From the NCBI GenBank assembly GCA_016788565.1, contig JAEUSP010000064.1:289-64288 (forward strand): a stretch of 64,000 bases of DNA, given 5' to 3'. The DNA is from Chlorobiota bacterium. Lineage in GTDB: Bacteria > Bacteroidota > Ignavibacteria > OLB7. Shown piece by piece: positions 6,385-41,270 of the stretch. Position 1 is the stretch's first letter, and each line of letters starts with the position of its first letter. The notes beneath the pieces were generated by a model. The model was not told the origin of the DNA. It did not search any database and worked only from the letters and a program-made list of their open reading frames with translations. Position numbers and translations under genes: made by a program.

Positions 6385-6450
6385 GATTCGGTGGCTCCGC
6401 TTCATACTTCGACGGAGCTCAGCATGAGCGGAGGGCTGGATTCGGAGGTT
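6385..6450 (+). repeat. Dispersed ~55-bp hairpin element (module C: 'ttcggtggctccgCTCATACTTCGACGGaGCTCAGCATGAGCGGag'), copy 1
   Basis: The same element recurs at 6626-6690 (+), 18185-18235 (-), 36105-36172 (-) and 41073-41135 (+) with more than 85% identity. It has internal inverted arms 'ccgctcat' and 'atgagcgg'. Confidence 0.8.
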
Positions 6451-6625
6451 GGCGCAGGAGGATTTTTCGGAACTCACCCCCCCCCGTCATTGCGAGGAGT
6501 CTTCGACGAAGCACCGCGAAGCAGCGGCGCAAGCCCATCTCGCGGGTTTCTGAGAGAGTATCGGACACACTGCCAGCCGCGAGATCGCCACGTCGCTATC
6601 GCTCCTCGCGATAACGATTCTTCGC

Positions 6626-6800
6626 CGTTCGGAGGCTCACGCTCATACTTCGACGAAGCTCAGCATGAGCGGAGAGCCGGATTCGTGGTGTAGCGGTCAT
6701 TGGTCATTAGTTATTTCGTGAGTTCCCGGCTCCATCTCCATCTCACTCTTCCCATCTCACTCTTCAATCTTCGCTTCGGCCCCCTCTCCCACCCGCCGAA
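6626..6800 (+). repeat. Composite intergenic element: module C copy 2, then a 'GTCATTGGTCATTAG' heptamer-type run (module A), then a 'CTCACTCTTC' run (module B)
   Basis: Direct sequence match to the modules at 21.69 kb, 36.0-36.3 kb and 40.96-41.27 kb. It lies in the long leader upstream of deaD. Confidence 0.7.
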
Positions 6801-6894
6801 AGTGAGGCAACCAGCTCTATCACATATTTGGGAGAGGGCGGGGGGTGAGGGCAGGCAGCGGCGGCGGCATCCGCTGAAAACTCTATCACTCTCT

Positions 6895-6970
6895 TCTATT
6901 CGACACTCGGCATTCGACATTCGGCATTCCAACCATTTGCCATTTGACATTCGGCATTTGACATTTCTTG
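6895..6970 (+). repeat. Degenerate tandem 'CATT(C/T)GACATTCGGCATT' repeat just upstream of the deaD start
   Basis: The sequence 'ttcgacactcggcattcgacattcggcattcc..ccatttgacattcggcatttgacatttc' shares the 'catttgacattcggc' core with the 94-bp tandem unit at 21.7-22.1 kb. Confidence 0.65.
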
Positions 6971-6995
6971 CGGGGATTCTCCGTAACATGAACCC

Positions 6996-8807
6996 ATGAA
7001 GAACAACCACACGCCAGAAACCGCAACCGAAGCAACCGATTCTTTCGCTGAAATCGGGCTGAGTCTTCCGCTGGTTCAAACGCTTACCGAGCTTGGCTAC
7101 GAAACCCCAACCCCTATCCAGCAGCAATCAATCCCGCTGCTTCTTTCCGGCAAGGACCTGATCGGCCAAGCCCAAACCGGAACCGGAAAAACTGCCGCCT
7201 TCTCACTGCCAATCCTTGACCGCTTGGACCTTAGCCGTGGCGCGTTGCAAGCGTTGATCCTGACCCCAACTCGCGAGCTGGCCATTCAAGTTTCGGAGGC
7301 AATCCACACCTACTCGCGGCATCTTGGCCGCATCCGCGTCACGCCGATTTATGGCGGCGACTCTATCCAGAAACAGATCGTCCGGCTGCGCGGGCCGATG
7401 CACGTTGTGGTTGGCACGCCCGGGCGAATTATGGATCACCTTCGGCGCGGCACACTCACCTTCAGCGCGCTCCGTTTTGTGGTGCTGGACGAAGCCGACG
7501 AGATGCTCCGCATGGGCTTCCTTGACGACGTTGAGTGGATACTTGGCCAAGCCCCAGCCGAGCGGCAAACCGCACTGTTCAGCGCCACCATGCCGCGCGA
7601 AGTCCGCCGCATCAGCGAACGCTACTTGAACCAACCAACATCGGTGGAGATCACCCACAAAACGCTGACGGTCCCTTCGGTGGAGCAGTTCTACTTCCAC
7701 GTTACCGAAAAGCAAAAGCTGAATGTGCTGACCCAACTGTTGGACACCCGCGACAGCGATGCCGAGGCGATGCTGATCTTCACCCGAACAAAAATTGGCG
7801 CGGCAGACCTCACCGAAAAACTTCAAGCACGCGGCTACGAAGCCGAGGCGATGCACGGCGGAATGAGCCAATCGCAGCGGGAAAGTGTGGTGCGCCGGAT
7901 GCGTGCCGGGCAGATTGAAATTGTGGTGGCCACCGACGTTGCCGCGCGTGGGTTGGATATTGAGCAGATTGGGTTGGTGGTGAACTACGACATCCCCGGC
8001 GACCCCGAAGTCTATGTTCACCGGATTGGCCGCACCGGGCGCGCCGGGCGTTCGGGAACCGCGTTCCTGTTCGTCACCCCGCGCGAGGAACGGCTGATGC
8101 GGGAAATCGAACGCTACACCGGGCAGCGGCTTGTTCCCAAAAAAGTCCCTTCCCGCGCCGACGTTGCCGCCCGCCGAATGGCCCTGTTCAAAGAGCGGTT
8201 GCTGAAAGCGTTGGGGGAGGAAGACCTAGACCCGTATCTCACACTGGTGGAGGAACTTGCCGAAGAGAGCGGGCGGGAATTAGCCGAGATTGCCGCCGCC
8301 GCCGCACGGTTAGCGCAAGGAGAAAAACCGATCATGGTTTCGGTTGAGCCAGAACCGCAGAATGTTCCGGGGGCCGAGCGGGGAATGGCACGGTTGTTTA
8401 TCAATGCCGGGCGCAGCGCGGGAATTGGGCCGTCGGATATTGTTGGGGCAATTGCCAACGAGGCTGGGATTCCCGGGCGCGACATTGGGGTGATTGATAT
8501 TTATGATGATTTCACGTTTGTGGAGGTTCCGGCTCACCACCGCAATCAAGTGCTGGAATCGCTGGCGGGTGCCACCATCCGCAACCGCGAAACCAATATC
8601 CGCCCAGCAACCGAGCATGATCTGAAGCCACGTCGAACGTTCAATAACAACGTTGCCGACAAACCAAAAAGGAGAGAGGAGCGGAGAACCGAGGACACTT
8701 CTGGCGGCTGGTACGAGGACATCCCCCGTAAACGGAAAGGAGCAAAACCAATAGCTGCGCACAAAAATGAAAAGCGGAAAAAAGTTGGGGGGAAGAAGCG
8801 GAGATAA
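6996..8807 (+). CDS. deaD: DEAD-box ATP-dependent RNA helicase with a C-terminal DbpA RNA-binding domain and a basic tail (DeaD/CsdA-like)
   Basis: It has the Q-motif, motif I 'AQTGTGKT', 'PTRELA', 'DEAD', 'SAT' and 'HRIGRTGRAG'. The C-terminus carries a DbpA-like domain ('ARLFINAGRSAGIGPSDIVGAIANEAGI') followed by a K/R-rich tail. Confidence 0.9.
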   Translation: MKNNHTPETATEATDSFAEIGLSLPLVQTLTELGYETPTPIQQQSIPLLLSGKDLIGQAQTGTGKTAAFSLPILDRLDLSRGALQALILTPTRELAIQVSEAIHTYSRHLGRIRVTPIYGGDSIQKQIVRLRGPMHVVVGTPGRIMDHLRRGTLTFSALRFVVLDEADEMLRMGFLDDVEWILGQAPAERQTALFSATMPREVRRISERYLNQPTSVEITHKTLTVPSVEQFYFHVTEKQKLNVLTQLLDTRDSDAEAMLIFTRTKIGAADLTEKLQARGYEAEAMHGGMSQSQRESVVRRMRAGQIEIVVATDVAARGLDIEQIGLVVNYDIPGDPEVYVHRIGRTGRAGRSGTAFLFVTPREERLMREIERYTGQRLVPKKVPSRADVAARRMALFKERLLKALGEEDLDPYLTLVEELAEESGRELAEIAAAAARLAQGEKPIMVSVEPEPQNVPGAERGMARLFINAGRSAGIGPSDIVGAIANEAGIPGRDIGVIDIYDDFTFVEVPAHHRNQVLESLAGATIRNRETNIRPATEHDLKPRRTFNNNVADKPKRREERRTEDTSGGWYEDIPRKRKGAKPIAAHKNEKRKKVGGKKRR

Positions 8808-8942
8808 AAAACAACGCCGTATTTGAACGATGCGCTTTGTAAAAGCACCTAAAATAGAGTTGTTCCGGAATAGAGACTCTGACATCACGGAGCCTTGTAG
8901 TTACTGGATTCGCGACTACGGAAAATTTATTCTGGAGCAACT

Positions 8943-9881
8943 CTAATTCACCCAATGTCTTCCTAAAACAACCTTTATTCCGAACTGGTATTGTTTCCAA
9001 TTAGTTTTTGGTATCGTTGAGGTAAAGGGAAAAGAGAGAAAAATTTCTCCCCCACTTATTGCTCCTATATATGCAGTATTCCACCCTAATGAGAGTACAC
9101 AGTTGTAGCGATTTTTGTTCGACTCCTGAAACTCTGTTTCGGTGTCAAATTGAATTGTGTCGGCATTATTGTGATATCTAACCCCATCGTTTTCATTTGC
9201 AATATGAACGAATTGGGATTTCCTGCTTGAAAGCAAATGCTTAGAATCTAATTGAATACCCACATAATAACAAGATGAAATTGATAAAATCTTTGAATTA
9301 AAAAACACTCCATAGACAGGGATAAGAAACCCAATACTTCCTGAGATGAATTTCTCATTTAGATTCAACACATTTACCTCTTTAATTGATCCTATTCTAC
9401 CTGAGTAGAGCAGGTAGGATCGAGTTGTATCAAGTGAGAATAGCATACTTTCTTGATGTTGGAATCCGCCGCCAACAAGAATGATTCCAATTGGAATTTG
9501 CTGCCGAAAAGCAATTCCTACTTCCCAATAGGAAGTTGTTGGAAAATCTGAATTTTTAAATCTTCCGTTAGGTGTAGTAATAAGTTTTTGTTGATCTTGA
9601 TAAGGATTATTTGATGAGAATGCCATTGTAGTTGGGTGAAACGAATTTGCCCGGATAGCATCAGCACAATCAATAACATCACCTCCCGAGAACCAAAACA
9701 GCAATGATTGGGCAGGATCAGGAGCCGGGAACCATCCATGGGAATAATGATCAATAGTATCCGTAAATTGATATTTCTTTGCTTCTTCGTCAATATTTTG
9801 CCATAAAGAATCAATAGACTGCGCATAAGCATCAGATAAAATCACGATGCAGGATAGGAAAAATAATAGATGTATTTGCAT
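8943..9881 (-). CDS. Hypothetical secreted protein encoded in an AT-rich island
   Basis: It has an N-terminal signal peptide (MQIHLLFFLSCIVILSDAYAQ). Local GC is roughly 35%, against about 60% in the flanks. I recognised no conserved domain. Confidence 0.55.
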   Translation of the reverse strand: MQIHLLFFLSCIVILSDAYAQSIDSLWQNIDEEAKKYQFTDTIDHYSHGWFPAPDPAQSLLFWFSGGDVIDCADAIRANSFHPTTMAFSSNNPYQDQQKLITTPNGRFKNSDFPTTSYWEVGIAFRQQIPIGIILVGGGFQHQESMLFSLDTTRSYLLYSGRIGSIKEVNVLNLNEKFISGSIGFLIPVYGVFFNSKILSISSCYYVGIQLDSKHLLSSRKSQFVHIANENDGVRYHNNADTIQFDTETEFQESNKNRYNCVLSLGWNTAYIGAISGGEIFLSFPFTSTIPKTNWKQYQFGIKVVLGRHWVN

Positions 9882-9996
9882 GGTAGCTTATATAAAACTA
9901 TGGCCGTTAGTTAATTAACAGCCATAGTTTGTCTTAAAGTTTATTCAAAAATACTCATATCTAGTTTATATGCAACATACAAGATAGACATTCTGT

Positions 9997-10593
9997 CTAA
10001 ACAACTAATTTGCCGATAGAGTATGTAAATAGGGATGATAGAGCTCCAAATACAACTCCTTGTCCAACTACCTCCCAGCCTGTTAATCCTTCGTCTATAG
10101 CAAGGGCTACTCCAACCGTAACTCCGACAACATCACCAACTGCAACCCCTATAATTGACATATCAGCAGGTGGATAATAATTTGGAGTACTATCACGCCA
10201 GTATTCGCTGCTTCCAAGTGCAACATTGCTAATCACTTTAAAAACAGAATTAACGACATTACTATCAATAGCAGCCGAATCATGGATTGTTTTAATTTGG
10301 GCAGCAAATACTGATAGATTTGTTGTCCCTCGTTCCCAATGATCAGTTGATGAATTATAATAATTATCAAAAACAGAAGCATATTGATATAGGTATGATT
10401 TTTCAGTTGAATTAATCAATCCTTGTGTCAAGAAGCTATCAGCAAATCGTCGGAACTGATTTGGCGATCTTAATTTCTCACCTGAATTTATAGCCGCATT
10501 TAATTGCGAATCCAAAAAATAATTGTGCCAAGCACCAGCTTGATCCAAGCCTTGTTGTGAAAAAAGGCTTCCAGACGGTTTTGGGTAGCTCAT
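9997..10593 (-). CDS. Hypothetical protein with C-terminal glycine-zipper hydrophobic helices. It could be a membrane-active bacteriocin or toxin-like protein; encoded in an AT-rich island
   Basis: There is no signal peptide. The C-terminus reads 'IIGVAVGDVVGVTVGVALA...GWEVVGQGVVFGALSSLF', giving GxxxGxxxGxxxG motifs. It is co-oriented with the gene at 8943..9881. Confidence 0.5.
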   Translation of the reverse strand: MSYPKPSGSLFSQQGLDQAGAWHNYFLDSQLNAAINSGEKLRSPNQFRRFADSFLTQGLINSTEKSYLYQYASVFDNYYNSSTDHWERGTTNLSVFAAQIKTIHDSAAIDSNVVNSVFKVISNVALGSSEYWRDSTPNYYPPADMSIIGVAVGDVVGVTVGVALAIDEGLTGWEVVGQGVVFGALSSLFTYSIGKLVV

Positions 10594-11028
10594 GACGTGT
10601 CTCCTTATGTAGGTCTATTGATGTTTTTCTCAACAATGTTGAGTTGTTTTTTTTCTCTTGCAAATTTTCTCATCTTCTCCATTTTCATTGGAGCAACTAG
10701 AACAATGAGAGAAATATCCCCCTCTTTGTTTTACTCTAGGGGGCTGTGCGGTTTATCTTCCGGTTGTAGTTAGAAGACCCTTTGCTTCATCAAACCCTAC
10801 CCGTGAAAGCTATCGCCCCGTTATAGTATATAACACCACTTTGCTCTGAACGGTCACATTAATTTTCTGTAATGAAGCATCGGGTTGACGATCTGTTATT
10901 GTCAGAATGTTCATTGCTCCGTAAGACGCTTCCCCCCGCTCCGTAAGACCTGGCGGCTACCTTGAATGGAGTTCAATGCAATTCCGCATTGCCAAACCAG
11001 ATATTCAAACCTAGCCGAACAACTAACT

Positions 11029-14278: not shown

Positions 14279-14389
14279 GCGAAAAAGGCTGCAACGGTGT
14301 GGCGATTGTGCCTGAGTAACAAGCCCTTCCATCCCCAACAAAATCCCTTATCTTCGCGTCAAGTTTTTTTGCAGCAGCAAACACAATCC

Positions 14390-15310
14390 ATGGGCAACCT
14401 TGCGGTGATAGATAACGAGTATGCAGCAACGGTCACGCAGCAATCGCGGACCAGCTTCTACTACTCCTTCTCATTGCTCCCGCGCGACGAGCGGCAGGCG
14501 ATGCACTCGGTGTATGCCTTCTGCCGCTATGCCGATGACATTGTTGATGAAGATGACACCCTGGAATCGGAATCACAGCCCGCCGCGCCGGAGCAACGGA
14601 TTGCCCGCAAACGTGAGCGGCTGAACCGCCTGCGGGCCGAGGTGGAACGATGCTACAACGGCGAATCGCGCCACCCCATCACCCGCTCACTTTCGGCAGT
14701 GGTGAAGCGGTTCAACATCCCCAAACAGTACTTCCTGACGTTGCTGGATGGAGTGGAGATGGACTTGGTGAAAAACCGCTATGAGACGTTCGAGGAATTG
14801 CGGGAATACTGCTACAGCGTAGCATCGGTGGTGGGGCTTATTTGCATCGAGATTTTTGGATATAAGTACGAAGAGACCAAGGAGTATGCCGTCAATCTTG
14901 GAATTGCCTTGCAGCTGACGAACATCCTGCGCGACGTGAAATCAGATGCCGAACGTGGACGCATCTACTTGCCGATGGAGGACCTTCGGGCGTTCGGCTA
15001 CACCGAGCGGGACGTTCTGGAGAACAGCTACAACTTGCCTTTCATCGAACTGATGCGATTCCAGACCCGCCGCGCCCGCCAGTACTACGGGCGCGCCCGC
15101 GCCGCGCTTCGCCCCGACGAACGCCGCACGATGTTCGCTGCCGAGATTATGGACGCTATCTACTACCGAATGCTGGAAAAAATTGAGTTGAACGAGTTCG
15201 ACATCTATCGCCGTAAAATCTCGGTCCGCACGCCGCACAAATTGTGGATTGCGTTCAAGTTGTGGCTTGTCACCCGTGTGCTCACCAACCGGAAATCAGC
15301 GGCAAAGTAG
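14390..15310 (+). CDS. crtB: Phytoene/squalene synthase family (CrtB-like)
   Basis: The first Asp-rich motif is 'YAFCRYADDIVDE'. The second is 'LQLTNILRDVKSDAERGRIYLP'. This is the trans-isoprenyl diphosphate synthase head-to-head fold. Confidence 0.8.
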   Translation: MGNLAVIDNEYAATVTQQSRTSFYYSFSLLPRDERQAMHSVYAFCRYADDIVDEDDTLESESQPAAPEQRIARKRERLNRLRAEVERCYNGESRHPITRSLSAVVKRFNIPKQYFLTLLDGVEMDLVKNRYETFEELREYCYSVASVVGLICIEIFGYKYEETKEYAVNLGIALQLTNILRDVKSDAERGRIYLPMEDLRAFGYTERDVLENSYNLPFIELMRFQTRRARQYYGRARAALRPDERRTMFAAEIMDAIYYRMLEKIELNEFDIYRRKISVRTPHKLWIAFKLWLVTRVLTNRKSAAK

Positions 15311-18023: not shown

Positions 18024-18039
18024 AAAAAACCGGCTCATC

Positions 18040-18250
18040 TCAAGTTATACTCGCACGAACGTGGTTTGCGACAAAACCCGCGCTGTCATTCCCGCGAAAG
18101 CGGGAATCCACACCACACCTGGCTGAGTAGAGTTTCGCAAACCAATTTGCGCCGAGTATAGTGTACAACGGCCACCGAATCCTGCCCCCGCTCATGCTGA
18201 GCCCGTCGAAGTATGAGCGGAGCCACCGAATATAGATGCTACGGATGCCC
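18040..18250. repeat. Intergenic repeat cluster: a palindromic 'ATTCCCgcgaaagcGGGAAT' element with flanking repeat arms (related to 29530-29645), then module C copy 3 (18185-18235)
   Basis: 'aacgtggtttgcgacaaaacccgcgctgtcattcccgcgaaagcgggaatcca' matches the reverse complement of 29585-29640. Module C is seen in the reverse orientation. Confidence 0.7.
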
Positions 18251-18341
18251 ACCTACCACGCAGGCTAACTGTAGCTGAGCCAAAACTTCTTGCAAACCAC
18301 TTTGTTTGGAGTAAAATCCGAACAAATAGCCAAACCCAACA

Positions 18342-21599: not shown

Positions 21600-21710
21600 C
21601 GGCTTGTTGTTGTTAGTTCATGGTTCGTTGCAAAGAAACGATTGCGGATATTCTTCTTCGTTTGGCATTCCACTGACTGGTGGATTGTGGTCATTAGTCA
21701 TTAGTCATTA

Positions 21711-22087
21711 GTCAGTGGTCAGTGGTCAGTGGCAAGAACACATTCGCCATTTCGGCGGCTGTGCCATTCCCGACTCCCTCACTCTTCCTCATTCGACATT
21801 CGACAGTCAGTGGTCAGTGGCAAGAGCACATTCGCCATTTGACATTCGGCGGCTGTGCCATTCCCGACTCCCTCACTCTTCCTCATTCGACATTCGACAG
21901 TCAGTGGTCAGTGGCAAGAGCACATTCGCCATTTGACATTCGGCGGCTGCGCTATTCCCGACTCCCTCACTCTTCCTCATTCGACATTCGACAGTCAGTG
22001 GTCAGTGGCAAGAGCACATTCGCCATTTGACATTCGGCGGCTGCGCCATTCCCGACTCCCTCACTCTTCCTCATTCGACATTCGACA
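21711..22087. repeat. Tandem array, 4 copies of a 94-bp unit (first copy 96 bp and slightly divergent)
   Basis: The unit 'gtcagtggtcagtggcaagagcacattcgccatttgacattcggcggctg(t/c)gc(c/t)attcccgactccctcactcttcctcattcgacattcgaca' repeats head-to-tail at 21806, 21900 and 21994. The period is not a multiple of 3, which explains the frame-hopping pseudo-ORFs 21715..21936, 21722..22030 and 21855..22286. Confidence 0.85.
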
Positions 22088-22101
22088 TTCGGCATTTCCC
22101 C

Positions 22102-24570
22102 CTACGGGTGCGTCGCGCTTCGTGGTTGGGAGAGTTGCGAGAGCGAGCCGTCGTTGCGGAGGATTGCCACACGGTACCAGTAGGTCCGGTTCCGCGCCAC
22201 CGAGCGATCCGCAAACTCCCCCACCTTCACCACATTCTCCAGTTGGAAATAGCTCCCATCCTCGGTGTTGCTGCGGAAGACAATGAAGCCCCGCATCCGT
22301 GTGGCATCGTAGGCGGGCGACCACTGCACTTGCAACGCGCATGGCCCTTCGGTTGGGGTGATGGAGTTGATTGCCGGAGCATCCTCACGGTTCGATTTGA
22401 ACGTGAACGTGCTGATTGCCAGCGCGCTATCCCGCACCGATTCGTTCCCGTTTTTGTCAATGCCCAGCACCCGATACCAGTAGGTTGCTTTGGGGTTCAC
22501 CTTGTAATCCATGAACGTGCCAGCACTCATGTAGCTTTGGCTGCTGAGCGGAATGGAGTCGCAGACGGGAATTGCGGGCGGGGTGTAAGGGCTGGTGAGG
22601 ATTGCACCCACCAACGGTGGCGGAACAACCGTGCGCCCACCAACAAAGGTGTAGGTTCCGGTGCGGCTTTCGGAACGATAGACGTGGTAAGCCGCGATGT
22701 CCTGGACCGGCGGGCCAATCCACTCCACACGCACCGCGCTATCGCGGGCGTACAGGCCGCTGATGATTGCTGGCTCGGGCGGGGTTTTGTCGCGCAGGCG
22801 TTCGCACACCACAATCTCCTTCGTCAAATCCGGAACTGGCCACGCGCCGCTGATGTTCTGCGAGTGATCTTGCGCTTTCACCAAGTAGGCGTAGCAGAGT
22901 GGCGAGCCTTCGGGGACGGTGTAGTCGTCGAAGTAGGTGATGTTGCCGGTTGCGCGGTTGCGGGCATCGGTGTGGGAAATTTGCCCCACCAGCACAAACG
23001 GCCCGCCGCAATCGCTTGGCTTGTACGGGTTCTTATCCTTGTCGCCGTTTGGGTTTGGCTGGGTGTGCGTTGGTTTTCCGGCGGGCGTTTTGCCACGGGT
23101 GGTGTCGGGGCAGGGAATCCAATCGCCGTAATCGCACAGGGCGCGGTAAATCAGGTAGCCATCAATGTCGCAGTCATCGTTCAGTTCCCACTTCACCCTG
23201 ATGAACTTCTCCTCCCCCTGGGCTGTTGTTCCTTTCACGTTGTTCGGGCGGGTGGTGTCCTTCAGTGCCGCGCCCACCGCTGCCGAGCGTTTGCTGACAA
23301 GGTTTGCCGAGTCAATCGCTTCCACACGGAAGAACCAGCTTTTGTCGCCGCAGTCGCTCCGAAGCCCTGCAGAGCTATCCCCCTTCACCACAAACTGCGT
23401 GGAGTCGGTTGGGTGGTTCACCGTGCCAACCAGCACCGCCCCCACGTTCGGGTTTTCGGCATCTTCGTACCGATAGACTCGGTACGATTTTGTCTTCTCG
23501 CTGTGCCCCTGCTCATCGCGGATCACCTTTGGCCAGGTGATGCGGAAGCTGCTGGAAGTATCCACTGCCGTAACGATTATCCCGGTTGGTGTGGCCGGCG
23601 GGGTGCTATCCACCGGAACTCCATTGACCACCACCGAGAACGAACCTTCGTTCCCCAAGATGTCGCGATGCTTCACCTTGTAGTAGTAGGTCTTGCCGTT
23701 TTCTGGCCCCAAGAATGTTCCGGCCACGCCCGGGATGGAGATGGAAACCGGGTTCCCAGCCGAATCCCAGCGGGTGTAGTCGGTGAAGCCGTGTGCCGCG
23801 GGCGAGACTGATTGCTCCAGAATGTTGGTATCAATATCGCTGCTGATGGTTGCCTCGTTCACCCGACGATAAATGCCAGCCGCAAGATTGGAGCGATAGA
23901 CATTGAACCCGGCGAACCGTGGCGCAGGCTTGTTCCAAAGGATTTGCAGCTTGCGATCGCCAGCCACCACGCCACGCATGGATGGAGTTGGAATCGCCCC
24001 CGGCACACCGGCGGTGATCGTGATATCGCTGGCCCCGGTTGCCGGAAGCACCGTCCCACCGGCGTTCACCCGGCGGACTTGGTACTGGTAGATGGTTCCC
24101 GCAACCATGCTGTTATCCACCCATGCAACCCCCATCACCCGTGCAATCGCGGGGCGGGCGCGGGCAAGAAGCATCCCTTTGTTCCACCCTGCCGAGCCTT
24201 GCGCGTAGCCAGCAACCGCGCAGACGTTACCGAGCGGGGCTTTGGTGGCGGTGTCGGCAAAGGCGTTGGCAAGGTAGTTCCAATCAACCGAGCCTGAAGG
24301 GATGATGGTTTGGAACTGCGGGCAGTTGGTGATGGGCGCAATCGGCGTGGCATTCAGCGGCGCGGCGGGGTACGTTGCGTCGGCGGCCAGCTTCCGGTAG
24401 ATATTGTAGCGATAAACGGCCGTGGTGTCCGCCGGCCATGTCAGGAACACCTGCAGTGGGGCCGCAGTGGTGTAGCCTTCCAACGCCTGCGAGCGGGCCG
24501 GGCTGGGAAACAGAAGGAGGAGGAGAACAACGATTGTTCCCAGATTTATCCAAACCGCACTGTTTCCCAT
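22102..24570 (-). CDS. Secreted protein with multiple fibronectin type III-like domains
   Basis: Signal peptide from the internal Met (MGNSAVWINLGTIVVLLLLLFPSPARSQA). Repeated FN3-like 'L.V.W..P......GY.VYRS...G.Y' modules. Confidence 0.6.
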   Translation of the reverse strand: MGNSAVWINLGTIVVLLLLLFPSPARSQALEGYTTAAPLQVFLTWPADTTAVYRYNIYRKLAADATYPAAPLNATPIAPITNCPQFQTIIPSGSVDWNYLANAFADTATKAPLGNVCAVAGYAQGSAGWNKGMLLARARPAIARVMGVAWVDNSMVAGTIYQYQVRRVNAGGTVLPATGASDITITAGVPGAIPTPSMRGVVAGDRKLQILWNKPAPRFAGFNVYRSNLAAGIYRRVNEATISSDIDTNILEQSVSPAAHGFTDYTRWDSAGNPVSISIPGVAGTFLGPENGKTYYYKVKHRDILGNEGSFSVVVNGVPVDSTPPATPTGIIVTAVDTSSSFRITWPKVIRDEQGHSEKTKSYRVYRYEDAENPNVGAVLVGTVNHPTDSTQFVVKGDSSAGLRSDCGDKSWFFRVEAIDSANLVSKRSAAVGAALKDTTRPNNVKGTTAQGEEKFIRVKWELNDDCDIDGYLIYRALCDYGDWIPCPDTTRGKTPAGKPTHTQPNPNGDKDKNPYKPSDCGGPFVLVGQISHTDARNRATGNITYFDDYTVPEGSPLCYAYLVKAQDHSQNISGAWPVPDLTKEIVVCERLRDKTPPEPAIISGLYARDSAVRVEWIGPPVQDIAAYHVYRSESRTGTYTFVGGRTVVPPPLVGAILTSPYTPPAIPVCDSIPLSSQSYMSAGTFMDYKVNPKATYWYRVLGIDKNGNESVRDSALAISTFTFKSNREDAPAINSITPTEGPCALQVQWSPAYDATRMRGFIVFRSNTEDGSYFQLENVVKVGEFADRSVARNRTYWYRVAILRNDGSLSQLSQPRSATHP

Positions 24571-24627
24571 GCAGGTGTTTTTTATCGTTCTTTCAGTCTT
24601 GTTCATTGGCATCTCCTGTGTGTGAAA

Positions 24628-29496: not shown

Positions 29497-29529
29497 AGCG
29501 GCTGTCCATATCTGTGGTTCAAGCGTTTC

Positions 29530-29645
29530 GTGTCGGTTGTTATACTCGGAACATAGTGGCTTGCGAAAAACTCAATCAAGTGCGCTATGGATTCCCGCTT
29601 TCGCGGGAATGACAACGCAGGTGTTTTCGCAAACCACGTTCATCA
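29530..29645. repeat. Inverted copy of the 18040-18160 element, including the palindrome 'ATTCCCgctttcgcGGGAAT'
   Basis: The reverse complement of 29585-29640 reads 'aacgtggtttgcgaaaacacctgcgttgtcattcccgcgaaagcgggaatcca'. The flanking arm 'gagtttttcgcaagccactatgttccgagtat' resembles 18124-18160. Confidence 0.7.
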
Positions 29646-29649
29646 GAGT

Positions 29650-31389
29650 TTATCGGCCTTCTTCTTCGGGGCTATCTGGTTTCCAGGAGAAGGTTCGGCT
29701 GTAGGCCAGGGTGGCCGTTAGCTCGTTGAAATCGCTGCTGGCCGAGATTGTTCCGGCCCCCTGGGTGCGGTACAGCGTGAAGGTGAATTGATCTTCCGTT
29801 GTTGGGCGGAATCCGGCATTTGCCGTCAGGTTTATCACCGTGCCATCGAACGCCTCCATTTGTCCGGTGGCCAAGTTCAGCGCGGTTGTTTCCGTTGCGG
29901 TGTAGCCGGCCGAGGCCCCCACCGAGAGCGTGTTATCGAACAACCCGAGGGAGCCGTTCAGGGTTCCGCCCGTTGTTCCAATATCCAGCGTTCCGGTTTC
30001 GGTGGTCCCGCGCAGCACCGAGAATCCAATGCTGACCGCGCTCTCCACAAAAGTGAGGTTGTAGATCAGCGAAATGTTGTTCCCGCGTGAGTTGGTGAAA
30101 GCGTTGGTGAAGGCGTTCAGATCGCTGAACTCCTGGTAGTTGCCGATGACGGTGATGAAGTGGTTCAACGCCTCCGATTGCAGCAGCAACCGTGGCGCAA
30201 GCGTGGCCGATTGTGAAACGTTCCGCACACGGATGGAGTCGTTGATTGCCACCCGCCCCGCCGATTGGTCGGTGGAGTAGTTGATGTAGTTGGCATCAAT
30301 CCCGAAGGCATCGGTTGGGTACCAGCCAACGTTTGCCGAGCCGATAAGTCGGTTGGTTTCGGCAAAGCGGGTGTCCAGCAAGTTGTCGTGCTGGATTCCC
30401 ACCGATCCCCCAAGCCGCAAGCGGTTATCGAACAAGTCCAACGCAGGGGCAATCGTCCACCGCTCGAAATCGCTTGCCAGATACCACGTTCCCAACGAAG
30501 TGAAGTTCGGCTCCACCCGCTCGTATCCCGCACGGATTTTGAACGTGGGGATTGCAAAACTTAGCCCAGCCTTGCTGGCCAAATTCAGCGCGGTGGAGTT
30601 GTGAATCGGCTGGACGCTGGAGAAGAAATCAAGGTCACTGCTGTCAAGGTCGGTCAGTGGGGCGCGGGTGTCGCGGGTGTGAAGGCTTCCGGCAACGTCG
30701 GCATCCAACGTCAGTTCGGGGGTGATGTTGGTTTTCAGCGTCAGCCCCAGCACACTGTTTTCGGCGGGATAGAGTTCGTTCTGCGTTGGTGCTTTTTTCA
30801 GCGACGCGCTGTCGTCGTTGGCATGGAACCAGATAACATCGAAGTAGCTTTCCTGGCTGCCGAACCCAACTTTCAGCGCGTAGCCGTTCCGCTGGTAGGC
30901 GGGGATGTTGTAGAACTGCGTGGTGTCTTCCTCAACCGCCCGTTGCAGCCGCCCAATCATCCCAGCAAACCGGAACTTCCCCGGGTTGAACTCCATCCCG
31001 GCTCCCAAGAACGTCACTCCATCCAACGTGTAGGGGGACATGGTCATGGCGCGGTAGCCGAAGTATCCGGTCAGCGATTTGTAGCGTGGCGAAATTCCGA
31101 ACTGATTGAACGGCTGGCGGAAGTCCCGCTCCTGCTCGCTGAAGATGAAGTCAATCGGAAGCTGAAGGCTGTAGATTGTTGGGTTGAAGGTCCCGTTCAC
31201 AGTCCAGCTGAACGGTTCGCGGCGTTCGGGAATTCCGCTTGCCGAGTACCCCACCACCGAAGCACCCACCGACCCGCTGAAGGAGAACGGAGGTGCCTCG
31301 GTGATTTTTTCAACATCCGTTTGGGCAACGGCTTGCTGTGCTGCAATCAGCAGCAGCAGAATCGGGATATGTGTCCGCAGCCTTGCCAT
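29650..31389 (-). CDS. Predicted outer-membrane beta-barrel protein
   Basis: Signal peptide (ILLLLIAAQQAVAQ). Alternating amphipathic beta-strand pattern. C-terminal aromatic residue ('...TLAYSRTFSW'). It sits at the head of an operon-like block of secreted proteins. Confidence 0.5.
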   Translation of the reverse strand: MARLRTHIPILLLLIAAQQAVAQTDVEKITEAPPFSFSGSVGASVVGYSASGIPERREPFSWTVNGTFNPTIYSLQLPIDFIFSEQERDFRQPFNQFGISPRYKSLTGYFGYRAMTMSPYTLDGVTFLGAGMEFNPGKFRFAGMIGRLQRAVEEDTTQFYNIPAYQRNGYALKVGFGSQESYFDVIWFHANDDSASLKKAPTQNELYPAENSVLGLTLKTNITPELTLDADVAGSLHTRDTRAPLTDLDSSDLDFFSSVQPIHNSTALNLASKAGLSFAIPTFKIRAGYERVEPNFTSLGTWYLASDFERWTIAPALDLFDNRLRLGGSVGIQHDNLLDTRFAETNRLIGSANVGWYPTDAFGIDANYINYSTDQSAGRVAINDSIRVRNVSQSATLAPRLLLQSEALNHFITVIGNYQEFSDLNAFTNAFTNSRGNNISLIYNLTFVESAVSIGFSVLRGTTETGTLDIGTTGGTLNGSLGLFDNTLSVGASAGYTATETTALNLATGQMEAFDGTVINLTANAGFRPTTEDQFTFTLYRTQGAGTISASSDFNELTATLAYSRTFSWKPDSPEEEGR

Positions 31390-35896: not shown

Positions 35897-35999
35897 TGGG
35901 CCAGTTCGGAAGCAGTGAATTGTTGATGAAGCCACATCCAGAATATGGCGTGCAGCGGTCACGTTTTTGGGGGGAAGTGGTGACGGGAAAATGGGGATT

Positions 36000-36295
36000 G
36001 CCAAATTTCCGCACGGAAGAGTGAAGAGTGAGGTGTGAAGAGTGAAATAAAGCCAAAGCGGGAAACCCACCAATGACTAACGACTAATGACTAATGACCA
36101 CCGCGAACGCAGCCCTCCGCTCATGCTGAGCCCCGTCGAAGTATGAGCGGAGCCACCGAACCGAGCCGATTTCACTACCTGCCCTCTCCGAAGCAAAGAG
36201 TGAAGAGTGAGGTGTGAAGAGTGAAATAAAGCCAAAGCGGGAAACCCCCCAATGACTAATGACTAACGACCAATGACCGTCCCCCAACTGTGGCA
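36000..36295. repeat. Composite intergenic element in a divergent promoter region: two direct copies of [module B + 'aaataaagccaaagcgggaaaccc' + module A heptamer run] flanking module C copy 4
   Basis: 'gaagagtgaagagtgaggtgtgaagagtgaaataaagccaaagcgggaaaccc..aatgactaa(c/t)gactaa...' occurs at 36018-36098 and at 36196-36290. Module C lies at 36105-36172. Confidence 0.8.
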
Positions 36296-36427
36296 TGTGA
36301 GTTCGGACACCGAGCGTCCGGTGTTGAAATTGGTGGGTGGTAGATTTGGCATACTTTCACTGCAACGCAATGCAGTTGGGCAACAAGCAGTTATTTTCCA
36401 TCAACTACTTCATCAGCAACACCGACC

Positions 36428-38401: not shown

Positions 38402-38482
38402 GGAGACGGATTATTTGGAGATTTCGGAATTTGCATCAGCAACAGCAATGCCATGGTGGTGATTGTGGAGTTGGTGTAAGCA

Positions 38483-38522: not shown

Positions 38523-38545
38523 AACGTAGGATTTTGCATTCTACG

Positions 38546-39280
38546 TCAATCAATCTTTGCTTGTTCTATTACTCGGTCATCAATAATCGCATTGTTGGTT
38601 TTTAAATCAGCATCATTCATTCCTGTTGCCAGTATTCTCAATTTTATTTTGACTTGCTTATCTGTGAATTTGCTATTGCTTCTGGCGCGGATCAGAATGT
38701 TCTTTTGTTCGTTAAACTTCACCGTTGAGTCTTGATTCTTGAAGTCAAAATGAATCTTCGCTAATGTGCTTAGAGTTGCAAATGTTGGAGGGAAAAGGGC
38801 GTAAGTCAAAGGAAAGTCTTCCTGATTTTCAGAATCAGGAACTAAGCTAACAACAACGGATAGCATACCTCCATTAGGTGAGTTTGGGGATGTTAGATTC
38901 TTTGCATAGTACGTCCCTGACACATCCAAATTCATTGATAAAGTGTCATCAATACTGAGTTGAAATGGCTGGCTATAGCAATAAAAAATTTCTGGATTTT
39001 TTTTATGATGAATAAGCTGAGGTTCAATTGGTATGGACTGCTGAACACCAGAAGAAGTAGTAATCACAACAGAGCCTACTTCTGTTGTGAAATTGAATTT
39101 TACCTCTTTTTTATCAAAGAAGTGATGGTATGCTCCTGCTACTGTCACTCCATTTGTAAATTTTGTAGAAGTAGTCTGACCGAAGCAAAGGGTCACTCCT
39201 AAAAATATAGAAGCAACGCTCACGATGGAGCAAAGAGTTGTTTTCATTGATCGTTCAGTTGTGTTTTGAAGATTCATCAC
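38546..39280 (-). CDS. Hypothetical secreted protein (AT-rich island; paralog of 39277..39990)
   Basis: Signal peptide. Local GC is roughly 38%. It shares 'VQ(Q/R)SI..(E/Q)P', 'F(Y/S)(C/W)YS(Q/E)PF(Q/E)L', 'SG(T/S)YY' and 'KI(K/R)LR(I/L)' blocks with the adjacent gene. Confidence 0.6.
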   Translation of the reverse strand: MMNLQNTTERSMKTTLCSIVSVASIFLGVTLCFGQTTSTKFTNGVTVAGAYHHFFDKKEVKFNFTTEVGSVVITTSSGVQQSIPIEPQLIHHKKNPEIFYCYSQPFQLSIDDTLSMNLDVSGTYYAKNLTSPNSPNGGMLSVVVSLVPDSENQEDFPLTYALFPPTFATLSTLAKIHFDFKNQDSTVKFNEQKNILIRARSNSKFTDKQVKIKLRILATGMNDADLKTNNAIIDDRVIEQAKID

Positions 39281-39990
39281 TGCAAATCTTCATCTACTTT
39301 GTTGTCAGTATGAAATGGGTTTACGTTCTGAATTTTCAAATCGGAAGTGTGTATTTTGCTGGAATACACGCCTAAGCGAAGCCTAATTTTTTTAGAAGAA
39401 AGGCCTTTTCTCATTTTTGAATTATCTATAACAATAGGCTTTGTTTGATTGAATGCTATTGGTTGTGCATTGTGAAACTTCACAACATATTCTTCCCTAG
39501 TGCTCAAAACATGATCTTGCTGAGTTTCACTACTTTTACGTAGGGGATTGTCTTCGATTAAGTTGACATAAACAAGAAACTCATCTCCGTTCAAAATATC
39601 TGAAGATTTAGGGAGTGTACTGGTGTTGTAGTAGCTTCCCAAAATGTGCATATCAGCCTTAACGGTGTCAGTAGTGAATAATTCAAATGGCTCACTATAC
39701 CAATAGGAAAGCTCTGAATCTGTACTTCCAACAGGTTTAGGCTCTGGCTGCATTGTGATGGAGCGTTGTACTCCATCAGGGCTTGCTATTTGAATTTTTC
39801 CAAATTCAATCTCAAATGTGAATGTACAGTTCTTTGTACTATGTTCCCCTTTTATTAAAAGGCTATTAGCAATCTCCTTGCTTGTGGTATTTATACCAGT
39901 ATTGCCACTTACCCCGAGTACCAGAAAAATGGCCGGTATAAAACTGAGTAATTGTTGGAATTGGGGGAACGTCTGCATGGTAATCCGCAA
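39277..39990 (-). CDS. Hypothetical secreted protein (AT-rich island; tandem paralog)
   Basis: Signal peptide (IFLVLGVSG). It overlaps the downstream paralog by 4 bp and has the same conserved blocks. Confidence 0.6.
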   Translation of the reverse strand: MRITMQTFPQFQQLLSFIPAIFLVLGVSGNTGINTTSKEIANSLLIKGEHSTKNCTFTFEIEFGKIQIASPDGVQRSITMQPEPKPVGSTDSELSYWYSEPFELFTTDTVKADMHILGSYYNTSTLPKSSDILNGDEFLVYVNLIEDNPLRKSSETQQDHVLSTREEYVVKFHNAQPIAFNQTKPIVIDNSKMRKGLSSKKIRLRLGVYSSKIHTSDLKIQNVNPFHTDNKVDEDLQ

Positions 39991-40267
39991 TGATGAAATG
40001 ATTGATGGACAGTGTTGGGTTCATCTCGTAGCGCAAAGGTAATATAAAAGCAATCATACAACAGTGCTTGATAGATATTTCGGTTTTGGCGGGAGAGCAG
40101 CAAGAATCTGAGGCGGGGGCGGAATAAGCCAGCCAACAATTCGGGCGCGGGGCCAGCTGGCTCCGCGCCCGATTCCCACAATGCCGGACCGGATTGTTCC
40201 GGCATCATACTGCCGCACAACGTGGCGCGGCCATTGGATGTTAGCGGCCAGGGGTGGCCGCTATCTG

Positions 40268-40783
40268 TTAGTTCCGCAGCGTAACTGGGGCGGAGGTTTT
40301 CTCGGTGTTCAGCCGGTAGAACCACTCCCCTGCTGGCATTTTGCTGGCATCGAATTTCACGGTGTGGTCGCCGGCGTTCAACACGCCATCGTAGGCCGTG
40401 GCAATGTACCGCCCGTTGGCATCCACCAGCGTCACCGTCACCCGCGAACGCTCATCAATGTGGACGCTGACGCTTGCTTGCTCATGCTGGCTAACCGGCT
40501 TGGTGCTGACTTTGTAGAACCATTCTCCGGCAGGCAGCGTTGCTCCGTCGAACGCGATGGTGTGATCTCCAGCATCTAAAATCCCATCATGGACGGTCGC
40601 GATCTCCTTCCCCTGTGCGTCGGTGATTATCACCCGAACATCCGAGCGTTCCTCCACCGAGACATAAACAACTTCTTTGCCAGCCCCTTTGGCGGCTGTG
40701 TTTGCTTGTGCATAGCCCGGTGCGGTGCTTGCAACGGTGGCCGATAGCAACAGCATCGGCAGTAGTAGTTTCGAAAATTTCAT
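40268..40783 (-). CDS. Small secreted protein made of two tandem T9SS-CTD/FlgD-Ig-like ~57-aa repeats and no other domain
   Basis: Signal peptide (LLPMLLLSATVASTAPGYAQA). The repeats are 'VRVIITDAQGKEIATVHDGILDAGDHTIAFDGATLPAGEWFYKV' and 'VTVTLVDANGRYIATAYDGVLNAGDHTVKFDASKMPAGEWFYRL'. Confidence 0.6.
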   Translation of the reverse strand: MKFSKLLLPMLLLSATVASTAPGYAQANTAAKGAGKEVVYVSVEERSDVRVIITDAQGKEIATVHDGILDAGDHTIAFDGATLPAGEWFYKVSTKPVSQHEQASVSVHIDERSRVTVTLVDANGRYIATAYDGVLNAGDHTVKFDASKMPAGEWFYRLNTEKTSAPVTLRN

Positions 40784-40959
40784 AGCAATCCTCTCCCTGG
40801 TTAAAAGGCTGTGGTTAGTGAAAACGGTGGTTAATGAATTCGCTGGGTGCGGGCGGCCCTACGCCAGCAGCATAGGTGGGTTGCAGAAGGCCGCAGAAAA
40901 AAAAATTAAGCAAGAATGGAGTGGGTGGGAAGAACAACGGGGGATCAGCATGAGGGGAG

Positions 40960-41270
40960 GGCCGGGGCAGTGGTCAGTGGTCAGTGGTCAGTAGTCAGTG
41001 GTGGGTGGTTGGTTTCCGACTTTGGCTTCATTTCACTTTTCGCTTGGGTGAGGGCCGGCGGTGAAAGCGGCTTGGTTCGGTGGCTCACGCTCATACTTCG
41101 ACGGGGCTCAGCATGAGCGGAGGGCGGGATTCGGTGGCCTCATCTCTCACCTCTATTTCCTACTTCCTTAGTCAGTAGTCATTAGTCATTGGTCATTAGT
41201 GAGTTTCCGGCTTTGGCTTCATTTCACTCTTCACACTTCACACTTCACTCTTCGCTTGGAAGCAGCTTGG
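40960..41270. repeat. Composite intergenic element: module A run (40969-41005), module B ('ttcatttcacttttcgcttgg'), module C copy 5 (41073-41135), a second module A run (41168-41205) and a second module B (41215-41262)
   Basis: Direct matches to the 36.0-36.3 kb and 6.6-6.8 kb elements. Confidence 0.8.

Follow-up and report, generated by a model that had tools for sequence, protein, structure and literature searches.

The repeats shared among the intergenic regions of a 64,000-nucleotide stretch of DNA from a Chlorobiota bacterium (hereafter the window) probably form a lineage-specific family of non-autonomous mosaic elements, spread by a transposase acting in trans together with local duplication, slippage and inversion, with any effects on gene expression incidental. 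They resemble familiar types of selfish DNA that spreads itself; the curiosity is that the core of one of their hairpins is alike, letter for letter, in an unrelated phylum.

Shared repeats were confined to six intergenic regions (6.3-7.0, 18.0-18.3, 21.6-22.1, 29.5-29.65, 35.9-36.4 and 40.8-41.3 kb), with cross-matches in both orientations touching exactly 6 of the 26 non-coding segments of the window and no coding sequence at all. The initial annotation had announced six loci and listed five; the modules that it named were all found at or near the coordinates it gave, six loci were confirmed, and the sixth lies at 29541-29652. This last locus shares with the one at 18 kb an element, MITE_F, other than the modules originally named. 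Relative to dinucleotide-preserving shuffles of the window, the 29-nt core of module C had four exact matches versus 0.00 expected, CATTTGACATTCGGC with at most one mismatch had six versus 0.01, TGACYAMTGACYA (two heptamers in succession) had 22 versus 0.26, and CACTCTTCAC had five versus 0.09. A strict array test over periods 4-12, in which 19 or more of 21 positions had to match at the lag tested, returned five arrays, all intergenic and all of period 7, with none at the other periods and none in 100 shuffles. The sharing of repeats among the window's intergenic regions is confirmed as real and far above chance. Heptamer units in the window are of the types GGTCAKT, ACTCTTC, ATTCGRC and CTTCTCT, the last forming a further, B-like intergenic array at 50288-50324 (+ strand; tandem-repeat and lag tests) that is a possible outlying member of the family. 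By Pfam and NCBIfam assignment the flanking genes have no function in common, comprising a helicase, a thioesterase, several surface proteins and others with no known role, T9SS sorting domains scored above the curated cut-off in two window proteins, and neither gene beside the 41-kb locus had a Pfam or NCBIfam match, which leaves the papain-like peptidase previously named there unsupported.

Module C is a REP-like imperfect hairpin of about 34 nt within a 62-nt unit, with a 10-bp stem containing one G.T pair, and is present in 33 copies in the window and the related loci examined; the window copies are all intergenic, with nearly identical hairpin cores. The core consensus is CCGCTCATGC-TGAGC-N3-4-GTCGAA-GTATGAGCGG, with an invariant G.T position and ACCGAA adjoining. 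Copy 1 (6386-6448, + strand) forms the 10-bp stem with the loop GCTCAGC..TCGAAGT when read on the other strand, is flanked by direct ATTCGGTGG / ATTCGGAGG and has an extra T in its left arm. Copy 2 (6627-6690, +) is oriented like copy 1, copy 3 (18172-18231, -) has a loop 1 nt shorter, and copies 4 (36099-36161, -) and 5 (41074-41137, +) lie inside the composites at 36 and 41 kb. Of the earlier claim of five copies at more than 85% identity the count stands, but identity to the reference over 65 nt is 83-85%. Neighbouring copies are direct repeats, both in the window (6386/6627) and elsewhere (466/815 in L011, four in tandem in L014, C-X-C triples in L051), and since they are direct and not inverted they are not REPIN doublets. 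In L050 the C loop is inverted relative to its flanks, and at several loci of the related MAG SJ842 a 22-nt hairpin is nested within the loop.

Several components had been overlooked in the initial list of modules, namely a hairpin D, an element X, MITE_F and a 94-nt tandem unit, and the supposedly freely combined blocks proved to be the same modules in both orientations, but as parts of larger repeated composites. Between the first two copies of C lies X (6486-6615), a long MITE-like hairpin. It spans about 130 nt between the inverted ends GTCATTGCGAGGAG / CTCCTCGCGATAAC and has an RNA fold of -59.6 kcal/mol (z -3.4) and an 80-nt core 92.6% identical to positions 3081-3160 of SJ842 locus L017. 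The resulting C-X-C triple (6386-6690) recurs twice in L051 and again in L050, the order is X-C-X in L018, and window and L051 carry the interior of X in opposite orientations. Downstream follows an AB unit (6695-6779, +), at about 90 nt one of the larger repeated units, consisting of a short A-run (GGTCATT GGTCATT AGTTATT), a linker, a B-run (ACTCTTC CCATCTC ACTCTTC AATCTTC) and then GCTTCGG; such units are unstructured (fold z +0.1 and +1.5). Module D (6780-6859, +), which also occurs in SJ842 and L018, is a longer, GC-rich hairpin (CCCCCTCTCCCA, about 48 nt, TGGGAGAGGG) with GGTGAGGGCAGGCAGC after it; joined to AB it makes up a unit of about 154 nt, two copies of which occur in strains L001 and L004. 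The block closes with an E-run (6898-6965, +) of the heptamers ATTCGAC / ATTCGGC / ATTTGAC, which stops 30 nt short of the deaD ATG. MITE_F is a 115-nt element at 18046-18160 (+) with inverted ends of about 26 nt, TATACTCG..TGGTTTGCGA, a central hairpin ATTCCCGCGAAAGCGGGAAT and strong folding (z -3.95 / -4.72). Its second copy, found by cross-match to the first (29541-29652, -), contributes through its terminal TAA the stop codon of the gene at 29650-31389 (-); a TA/TA duplication may flank the element, but the left ends of the copies are degenerate.

At 21687-22096 (+) an A-run (21687-21732) is followed by four copies of the 94-nt unit (period 94, 4.0 copies, 96% matches), which is itself made of A, E and B heptamer blocks and adjoins the stop codon of the gene at 22102-24612 (-). 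We rejected a CRISPR array as the identity of this tandem and of a 65-nt array in L014, as their 'spacers' are themselves repeated and Pfam scans found no cas gene. Intergenic cross-matches delimited a composite of about 270 nt at 36008-36278 (-) with the order A-L1-B-L2-C-A-L1-B, whose two AB units (36008-36099 and 36187-36278) are 91% alike, and the same composite in opposite orientation at 40964-41262 (+), there comprising AB (40964-41041), L2 (41042-41073), C copy 5, a degenerate pyrimidine spacer and a second AB (41165-41262). On alignment the two are collinear over about 290 nt, apart from two gaps, one of 21 nt (three heptamers) and one of 32 nt; where the alignment stops, at an A-run to one side and a B-run to the other, neither inverted ends nor a target duplication is visible. 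Lacking terminal inverted repeats and visible target duplications, the C composites of the window are therefore not classical MITEs.

The family extends beyond the window, and neither is it confined there nor does it represent the duplicated 3' end of one gene, two outcomes that the initial annotation had named as fatal to its proposal. The same modules occur in different orders at further loci on other contigs, L050, whose sample also contains part of the window as a 100%-identical copy, and L051, and likewise in the related MAGs SJ842 and L018. A further MAG, GCA_044224645.1, belongs to the same species as the window; SJ842 has gene order in common with the window and a DeaD of 92% protein identity. 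At deaD, conservation between window and SJ842 is limited to about 45 nt preceding the ATG; farther upstream SJ842 has the same module types in other number and order, and a different neighbour gene. SJ842 also carries at least nine copies, 83-97% alike, of an element of about 165 nt with C at its centre and 14-nt terminal inverted repeats (CTCACCTTACGCAG / CTGCGTAAGGTGAG), three of them with clean 7-bp target duplications (TTATTGA, TTACTTA and TTAGAAA), and judged by these features the C-carrying element of SJ842 is a bona fide MITE. These ends also bound elements that carry X, or D plus C in arrays. The end sequence CTCACCTTACGCAG was absent from the window at up to two mismatches and from all same-species loci, and an unrelated ISAs1-type IS sits among the modules in L018. 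Short-read contigs from many samples break inside the repeats (at 6839, about 21717, 36209-36258 and 40955-40997), an effect that multi-copy sequence has on assemblies.

We propose that the building blocks of the family are module C, the heptamer runs A (GGTCAKT), B (ACTCTTC / ACACTTC) and E (ATTCGRC / ATTTGAC), hairpin D and the MITE-like X and MITE_F, and that composites of these would be transposed in trans, the transposase being encoded at another place in the genome. Transposition is shown in SJ842 only, by terminal inverted repeats and 7-bp duplications; for the window's species we infer it. Whole units may then have been duplicated locally in tandem, with replication slippage acting inside the heptamer runs, elements presumably became nested in one another and hairpin interiors flipped, and selection removing insertions into genes would have left the intergenic accumulation. 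On this model, any consequences for adjacent genes (RNA hairpins in their untranslated regions, for example, or extra stop codons) would be by-products and not the reason for the repeats.

It is possible, if unlikely, that the modules are instead functional cis-regulatory or RNA elements recruited repeatedly as useful, the hairpins as mRNA stabilisers, processing sites or terminator-like insulators and the heptamer runs as protein-binding arrays or unstructured leaders. The promoter, leader and terminator placement described in the initial annotation agrees with such roles, as all copies stand in promoter, leader or 3' positions, and so do several properties of C: (i) on a single strand its fold is significantly stronger than that of shuffled sequences (z -4.1 and -2.6, versus +0.2 and -0.1 on the other), with 96% of cells pairable on the better-folding strand versus 83% on the opposite one across the 33 copies; (ii) its loop (TGAGC, 3-4 nt, GTCGAA) and one G.T position are near-invariant across these copies and two phyla, which implies a sequence constraint that could come from cellular function instead of transposase recognition; (iii) at L015 1197 a stem pair has undergone a double change from G:C to A:T, for which other SJ842 copies show G.T intermediates; and (iv) in Dehalococcoidia the hairpin stands directly 3' of stop codons. 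However, the strand asymmetry depends on two inherited positions and is roughly balanced when counted as events, orientation is mixed both for C (three of the five window copies co-directional with flanking genes, by inspection) and for AB units, and the neighbouring genes have no common function. No T-run follows C, no sigma-70-like promoter was found in the three loci scanned, and terminator-like matches inside the repeats amounted to two stems, short and weak, which lie in linkers of the 36-kb AB units and are as frequent as in shuffles, the one convincing terminator (6308-6340) lying upstream of the repeat block. Rfam 15 gave no match at gathering threshold in the whole window, and its E-value mode gave chance-level matches only, on the true terminator (6303-6374) and, with one match of 15 bits for a gathering score of 50, on C. 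With no promoter-like, convincing terminator or Rfam signal in the repeats, and with module order and number not kept at the orthologous deaD locus of SJ842, the regulatory half of the earlier proposal is not supported.

The 33-nt core of C copy 3 is 100% identical to the Dehalococcoidia loci L007 and L014, and to L020 over 34 nt, so that a core of 32-34 nt is letter-identical in three genomes of Dehalococcoidia (Chloroflexota), where it occurs as a bare hairpin just 3' of stop codons. An unlikely extension would treat the C hairpin as an independent micro-element able to pass from one phylum to another. A horizontally transferred enzyme would recognise it in single-stranded hairpin form, and the mosaics and MITEs would be mere vehicles that captured it.

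A quite unlikely alternative dispenses with transposition in the window's species altogether, so that the repeats would be old segmental duplicates, spread as well as homogenised solely by homologous recombination or gene conversion with slippage, and the MITEs of SJ842 an unrelated secondary capture of C. Consistent with this, terminal repeats are missing from the window composites and no target duplications are visible there, the two large composites are collinear like a duplicated segment, the flipped hairpin interiors indicate that recombination acts on these sequences, and no transposase or Y1_Tnp match was found among the 34 window ORFs, no multi-copy transposase-like ORF across the roughly 200 kb that the window and related loci make up, and no parent IS with ends matching the modules in the window or the related loci examined. 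Yet recombination alone does not scatter copies, in either orientation, over many unlinked positions between genes, X and MITE_F do have inverted ends, true MITEs in the close relative SJ842 carry the same modules, and the bare hairpin crossed phylum boundaries. The search for target duplications and a cognate transposase suggested by the initial annotation succeeded for the 7-bp duplications of SJ842 and failed at the window composite ends and for a window transposase. Its MITE/REP-like family is upheld as dispersed, orientation-independent, strictly intergenic and a MITE in SJ842, although the window composites are not classical MITEs and neighbouring C copies are not REPIN doublets.

Strains compared at 99.5-100% identity were of invariant length at three of five comparable loci and differed at two, by one 154-nt AB-D unit, one heptamer and the copy number of the 94-nt unit, differences that could stem partly from short-read collapse of tandem repeats. 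We regard as very unlikely that the loci are contingency loci, in which slippage of heptamers and of 94/154-nt units alters promoter or leader geometry and phase-varies adjacent surface or secreted proteins. In its favour, the only arrays are of period 7 and all intergenic, several neighbours are large secreted or T9SS-type proteins, strains do differ in heptamer and unit number, and some bacteria are known to have heptamer repeats in excess and of variable length (PMC4692102). Against it, length does not vary at 36 kb among 5 independent contigs or at 41 kb among 11, although their strains reach an SNP divergence of 0.2%, housekeeping genes (deaD, the thioesterase) have arrays beside them too, scans of three loci found no promoter elements with spacing alterable by repeats, and collapse during assembly may explain the copy-number differences.

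As mobile mosaics, the preferred reading, the repeats invite comparison with several known systems. Intergenic mosaic elements include the BIMEs of E. coli (REP/PU with other motifs), the NIMEs of Neisseria (RS units flanked by dRS3) and the RIMEs of Rhizobium. The window repeats belong to BIME/NIME-type mosaics as a descriptive class only: both are strictly extragenic clusters of a palindromic unit and short conserved motifs in variable order, number and orientation, with tandem amplification. Here, however, heptamer runs are integral modules, which is not a BIME/NIME feature, the palindromic units are direct neighbours and do not alternate in orientation, no sequence relationship to the E. 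coli PU was seen, and the bacterium that carries them is uncultured, Kapaibacterium-like and placed in the FCB group. At the centre of MITE_F, the hairpin ATTCCC-GCGAAAGC-GGGAAT matches ATTCCC-N8-GGGAAT, the pattern of dRS3. Elhai et al. in 2008 (cited in PMC3116915) reportedly described small dispersed repeats (SDR) nested in MITEs of cyanobacteria, to which our hairpin units of 20-35 nt, found alone, inside MITE-like elements and inside one another, correspond in arrangement but not in sequence; to our knowledge, cross-phylum identity of an SDR unit is not part of that description.

REP and REPIN elements are mobilised by RAYT (Y1) transposases (PMC3116915). Like REPs, C is a multi-copy extragenic palindrome, short and imperfect, with a conserved non-Watson-Crick position and tandem clusters, but it has no GTAG or CGTC head, its neighbours are direct and no RAYT gene is linked among the window ORFs, and its location in SJ842 inside a MITE with terminal repeats and target duplications argues for a DDE-type enzyme, not Y1. 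With MITEs (PMC10969869, PMC11602168), X and MITE_F agree in being small non-coding fold-back elements with inverted ends in several copies, and the C-carrying element of SJ842 agrees in its terminal repeats and 7-bp target duplications, features not seen in the AB/C composites and the 94-nt tandem of the window. The heptamer runs resemble the cyanobacterial STRR heptanucleotide repeats of Calothrix PCC 7601 (cited in PMC4692102) and the simple heptamer repeats known from Nostoc and Xanthomonas in being tandem, strongly over-represented and intergenic, with several families in one genome. The present host is not a (heterocystous) cyanobacterium and has T9SS sorting domains in two proteins, and its runs, instead of standing alone, are fixed in dispersed composites whose linkers are conserved. 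Circular permutation of TTGGTCA, the STRR2 unit, gives GGTCATT. At 5 of about 12 ends the MITEs of SJ842 adjoin TTAGTCA-type heptamers, and we speculate that such runs may be preferred targets, or accumulated 7-bp footprints, of the 7-bp-duplicating transposase of SJ842.

The intergenic repeats of the window are probably lineage-specific, non-autonomous mosaic elements that would spread by transposition in trans and diversify locally, with incidental effects on genes. All modules named in the initial annotation were present at its five loci when we inspected the sequence, and their counts stood well above those expected from dinucleotide-preserving shuffles of the window. The 29-nt core of module C, a REP-like hairpin unit, had four exact matches against none expected (a fifth copy has a loop shorter by 1 nt), while CATTTGACATTCGGC occurred six times (0.01 expected), the double A-heptamer 22 times (0.26 expected) and CACTCTTCAC five times (0.09 expected). 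A strict lag test over periods 4 to 12 returned arrays at period 7 only, all five of them intergenic, and none in shuffles. When all 26 non-coding segments were compared with the window as a whole, six of them gave cross-matches (6278-6995, 18024-18341, 21600-22101, 29497-29649, 35897-36427, and 40784-41274) and coding DNA gave none; five of the six rank among the seven longest segments with a called gene on both sides.

The modules had been described as building blocks in different combinations, but they do not assort freely, being parts of larger repeated units. The AB unit, aligned in seven copies, runs from GGTCAKT heptamers (module A) through the linker GGTGAGTTTCCGGCTTTGGCTTCATTTC to ACTCTTC or ACACTTC heptamers (module B) and GCTTSGG, and is followed either by the GC-rich hairpin D (CCCCCTCTCCCA, ~48 nt, TGGGAGAGGG) or by linker L2 and module C. 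AB units are unstructured (fold z of +0.1 and +1.5). Read as TGACTAA (21687-21732, 36072-36098, 36251-36277, and 41168-41200), the A-heptamer carries TGA or TAA stops in all three frames, and the opposite strand of the run has TAG in every frame, so that read-through translation would be halted in any frame. Module C is a unit of ~62 nt in which a hairpin with a 10-bp stem lies between direct RTTCGGTGG repeats, its loop reading, on one strand, TGAGC, three to four variable nucleotides and GTCGAA.

At the level of whole loci, those at 36 and 41 kb share a composite of ~290 nt (A-L1-B-L2-C-A-L1-B) in opposite orientations, the chief differences being gaps of 21 nt (three heptamers) and 32 nt, and the 21.7-kb locus holds four tandem copies (96%) of a 94-nt unit of A, E (ATTCGRC or ATTTGAC) and B heptamer blocks. 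A CRISPR-like reading of the tandem arrays was rejected because the "spacers" are themselves repeated. Upstream of deaD the order is terminator (6308-6340), C, X, C, AB, D, an E-run, 30 nt and the ATG. Element X (6486-6615) is a small MITE-like fold-back with inverted ends GTCATTGCGAGGAG and CTCCTCGCGATAAC (fold z of -3.4). Another such element, MITE_F, which the initial annotation did not include, has inverted ends of ~26 nt and a central hairpin, ATTCCCGCGAAAGCGGGAAT, with one copy at 18046-18160 and a second, inverted relative to the first, at 29541-29652. The stop codon (TAA, 29650-29652) of the minus-strand gene 29650-31389 is the end of the terminal repeat of this second copy, and the encoded protein may have had its C-terminal end altered by the insertion.

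Repeats limited to this window, or the 3' ends of one duplicated gene, had been named as outcomes that would count against a repeat family; neither applies, as modules lie on other contigs and in relatives. Using the translation of a spurious ORF (6391-6690) as a protein query, we reached two further contigs (L050 and L051) on which D, C, E-runs, X and MITE_F occur at additional loci, in orders that are different again; the L050 sample also contains a copy of part of the window at 100% identity. Numerous metagenome contigs carry window proteins unchanged, as does the NCBI MAG GCA_044224645.1 (JBGAKD01), whose accession neighbours that of a "Candidatus Kapaibacterium" MAG (JBGAJM01), a hint that both come from one study. 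Two window proteins have T9SS sorting domains that score higher than the curated cut-off, which fits Bacteroidota. Among GTDB genomes, the C core matched at least 14 contigs of the MAG SJ842, a "Candidatus Kapaibacterium" contig (L018, JBGAJM01) and at least three Dehalococcoidia assemblies, two of which are complete chromosomes. The NCBI label of SJ842, "Armatimonadota bacterium SJ842", is probably a taxonomic mislabel, because its DeaD is 92% identical to that of the window and its gene order is common with this T9SS-bearing, Kapaibacterium-like genome; we thus treat SJ842 as a close relative and reject a cross-phylum spread to Armatimonadota. All copies in SJ842 carry CCACTCAT and all those in the window CCGCTCAT, but their use as lineage-diagnostic variants is weakened because L050 has both. 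The single match to the AB linker in JGI metagenome contigs (L049) was taken as chance, the contig being unrelated, AT-rich and free of other modules. Module C had no match in the viral contigs and plasmid collections searched, which lends no support to a phage or plasmid vector.

Conservation of the loop flanks and of one G.T pair across 33 copies of the C hairpin, together with one copy in which a stem G:C has become A:T and G.T intermediates in others, would suit dedicated regulatory or RNA elements, a reading that we consider unlikely given that no sigma-70-like promoter appeared at the three loci scanned (the scan was not aimed at Bacteroidota-type promoters), that Rfam returned nothing meaningful (whole window at the gathering threshold; three loci in E-value mode), that C and AB lie in mixed orientation relative to adjacent genes, and that these genes have no functional relation to one another. 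At the same three loci the sole convincing terminator (6308-6340) is upstream of the repeats, and the matches within them, two weak stems of 5-6 bp in the 36-kb AB linkers, occur at the rate of shuffles. A regulatory role was thus not supported, and of the suggested "mobile or regulatory" family it is the mobile half that finds support. Compared with shuffles, module C folds more stably on the TGAGC strand (z of -4.1 and -2.6) and not on the other (~0), with 96% of cells pairable on the former versus 83% on the latter. We did not rely on this strand-specific folding as proof of RNA or ssDNA function because the asymmetry stems from two inherited positions; recognition of the hairpin by a transposase or recombinase would lead one to expect it just as much. 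Effects of a mobile mosaic family on neighbouring genes would be incidental.

Evidence for mobility comes from SJ842, in which at least nine copies of a ~165-nt element, 83-97% alike and with module C at the centre, end in CTCACCTTACGCAG and CTGCGTAAGGTGAG and show clean 7-bp target duplications at three copies (TTATTGA, TTACTTA, and TTAGAAA); elements with the same ends also bear X, or arrays of D and C. Composites built from these modules are thereby shown to move as MITEs in the sister genome. Target-site duplications, proposed at the outset as a check, were thus found in SJ842. In the window, alignment of the 36-kb and 41-kb composites gave neither inverted repeats nor visible duplications at their ends, and MITE_F, with degenerate left ends, may have a TA/TA duplication; the SJ842 end sequence was absent from the window and from every same-species locus searched. 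That the window copies are duplicates made by recombination only seems to us improbable, and that they are phase-variation loci for surface proteins more doubtful still. Under the favoured reading of a mobile mosaic family, transposition in trans, as seen in SJ842, would also have operated in the window's species, and the family would have diversified through tandem duplication, slippage of heptamers, nesting and the flipping of hairpins.

Comparison of orthologous intergenic regions confirmed that module number and order vary. Around deaD, coding DNA of the window and SJ842 (L011) is 83-88% identical and only ~45 nt 5' of deaD are conserved. The remainder of the upstream region has two C and three D modules in SJ842 versus C-X-C-AB-D-E in the window, and L018 differs from both in the arrangement found at this position. 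The gene 5' of deaD is not the same in the window and SJ842, and the switch falls exactly at the repeat block. At the deaD locus, strains that are 99.5-100% identical are distinguished by an additional AB+D unit of 154 nt and by a single heptamer. They also vary in how many 94-nt units they carry (locus lengths of 561, 373, and 285 nt), a difference that may reflect short-read tandem collapse, and the 18-, 36- and 41-kb loci showed no length variation among the strains compared. Flip-flop inversion occurs inside the palindromic elements: the loop of a C copy in L050 (10455-10520) is flipped relative to its flanks, as is the X interior (27-nt CACCGCGAAGCAGCGGCGCAAGCCCAT) between the window (6486-6615) and L051 (700-890). 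A nested C variant, multi-copy in SJ842 (L017 3615-3660, L019 7686-7950, L023 3190-3230, L013 4521, and L024 6077), has another TGAGC..TCGAAG unit, of 22 nt, inside its loop (CCGCTCATGCTGAGCCCGTCGAAG-CCTGTCCTGAGCCTGTCGAAGG-GTATGAGTGG), and MITE_F of L050 has a 20-nt insertion within its central hairpin. Immediately 3' of deaD, a 2.1-kb low-GC (~45%) segment (8807-10902) with ORFs of 312 and 198 aa without Pfam match is present in three near-identical strain contigs (L001-L003) and missing from a fourth (L004) and from SJ842 (L011), and constitutes an indel or small island.

The DNA searched yielded no cognate transposase: Pfam scans of the 34 window ORFs found none, and an all-against-all comparison of ORFs from the window and 20 loci found no multi-copy transposase ORF, the only pair being ECF sigma factors. 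L018 contains an ISAs1-type IS (126-1310; DDE_Tnp_1_assoc and DDE_Tnp_1 split over two ORFs) whose 14-nt ends (CAGGGCTGTTAAGT) are perfect. This IS has module D on one side and an X element on the other and lies on the 3' side of an adenylate-cyclase-like gene, which shares 84% identity with the SJ842 (L011) gene fragment 5' of deaD. The IS was rejected as the cognate partner, as its ends differ and its ORF is split in two.

In the Dehalococcoidia assemblies (at least three), the C core of 32-34 nt is 100% identical and lies immediately downstream of genes, either solitary or as a 65-nt tandem array, without Kapaibacterium-type flanks except for an adjoining ACCGAA. Short of horizontal transfer of the tiny element or of its recogniser, identity over such a length in non-coding DNA of different phyla is difficult to account for. 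This core is the one feature of the family that could have wider relevance: if horizontal spread of this ~34-nt element were confirmed, it would represent a very small inter-phylum mobile DNA unit and offer a handle on its enzyme.

In architecture the family agrees, at the level of descriptive class, with the intergenic mosaic elements BIME, NIME and RIME, and its composition resembles the combination of STRR heptamers, small dispersed repeats and MITEs in cyanobacteria. Heptamer over-representation has been documented in Nostoc and Xanthomonas, and Calothrix heptamers have been cited (PMC4692102). Defining features of REPINs are organisation as inverted doublets and linkage to a RAYT gene (PMC3116915); module C does not form inverted doublets, and the Pfam scans of window ORFs gave no Y1_Tnp hit. 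The terminal-repeat test for MITEs is failed by the window composites and passed by X and MITE_F. Given these mismatches, the family belongs to a known kind but to no named family. Literature searches found no publication on the module C hairpin strings and only unrelated sequence matches for the STRR heptamer strings. The family is ordinary in kind and well developed, with one cross-phylum curiosity; it adds an uncultured Bacteroidota lineage to those with extragenic mosaics of the BIME/NIME/STRR style and provides a clean case of heptamer runs incorporated in dispersed composite units.

Short-read contigs from many samples terminate within the repeats, which account for assemblies of this lineage breaking at recurrent sites, mark points of rearrangement and give rise to spurious ORF calls, both at 6391-6693 and among database proteins (P0001-P0004). 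Elsewhere in the window, the plus-strand ORF 65-6277 encodes 2070 aa built from NTAVG..AL..NTTG-type repeats (51 nt, 17 aa), in dozens of copies with higher-order periods of 150 and 300 nt; its orthologue on L001 (1-6891) has at least 2296 aa and runs past the contig end, so repeat number varies among near-identical strains. A low-GC (41%) ORF pair at 38546-39990 (244 and 237 aa, no Pfam match) is called variably on otherwise identical contigs, as 124 and 243 aa or as two 233-aa genes (L026/L041 and L029/L044). The lower-GC (49%) block at 46167-50207 includes a 637-aa ORF without Pfam match, a protein (48120-49274) with a restriction endonuclease domain of the Mrr type and, at 49275-50207, a second squalene/phytoene synthase paralogue. 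Across 188 aa this paralogue shares 29% identity with the orthologue, on L011, of window gene 14297-15310. Finally, a 15-nt tandem, ATCCAACAAGGGGAA, in 2.6 copies (50560-50598), encodes a short SNKG repeat within the 5' end of a 1205-aa TraB/PrgY/GumN-family gene.
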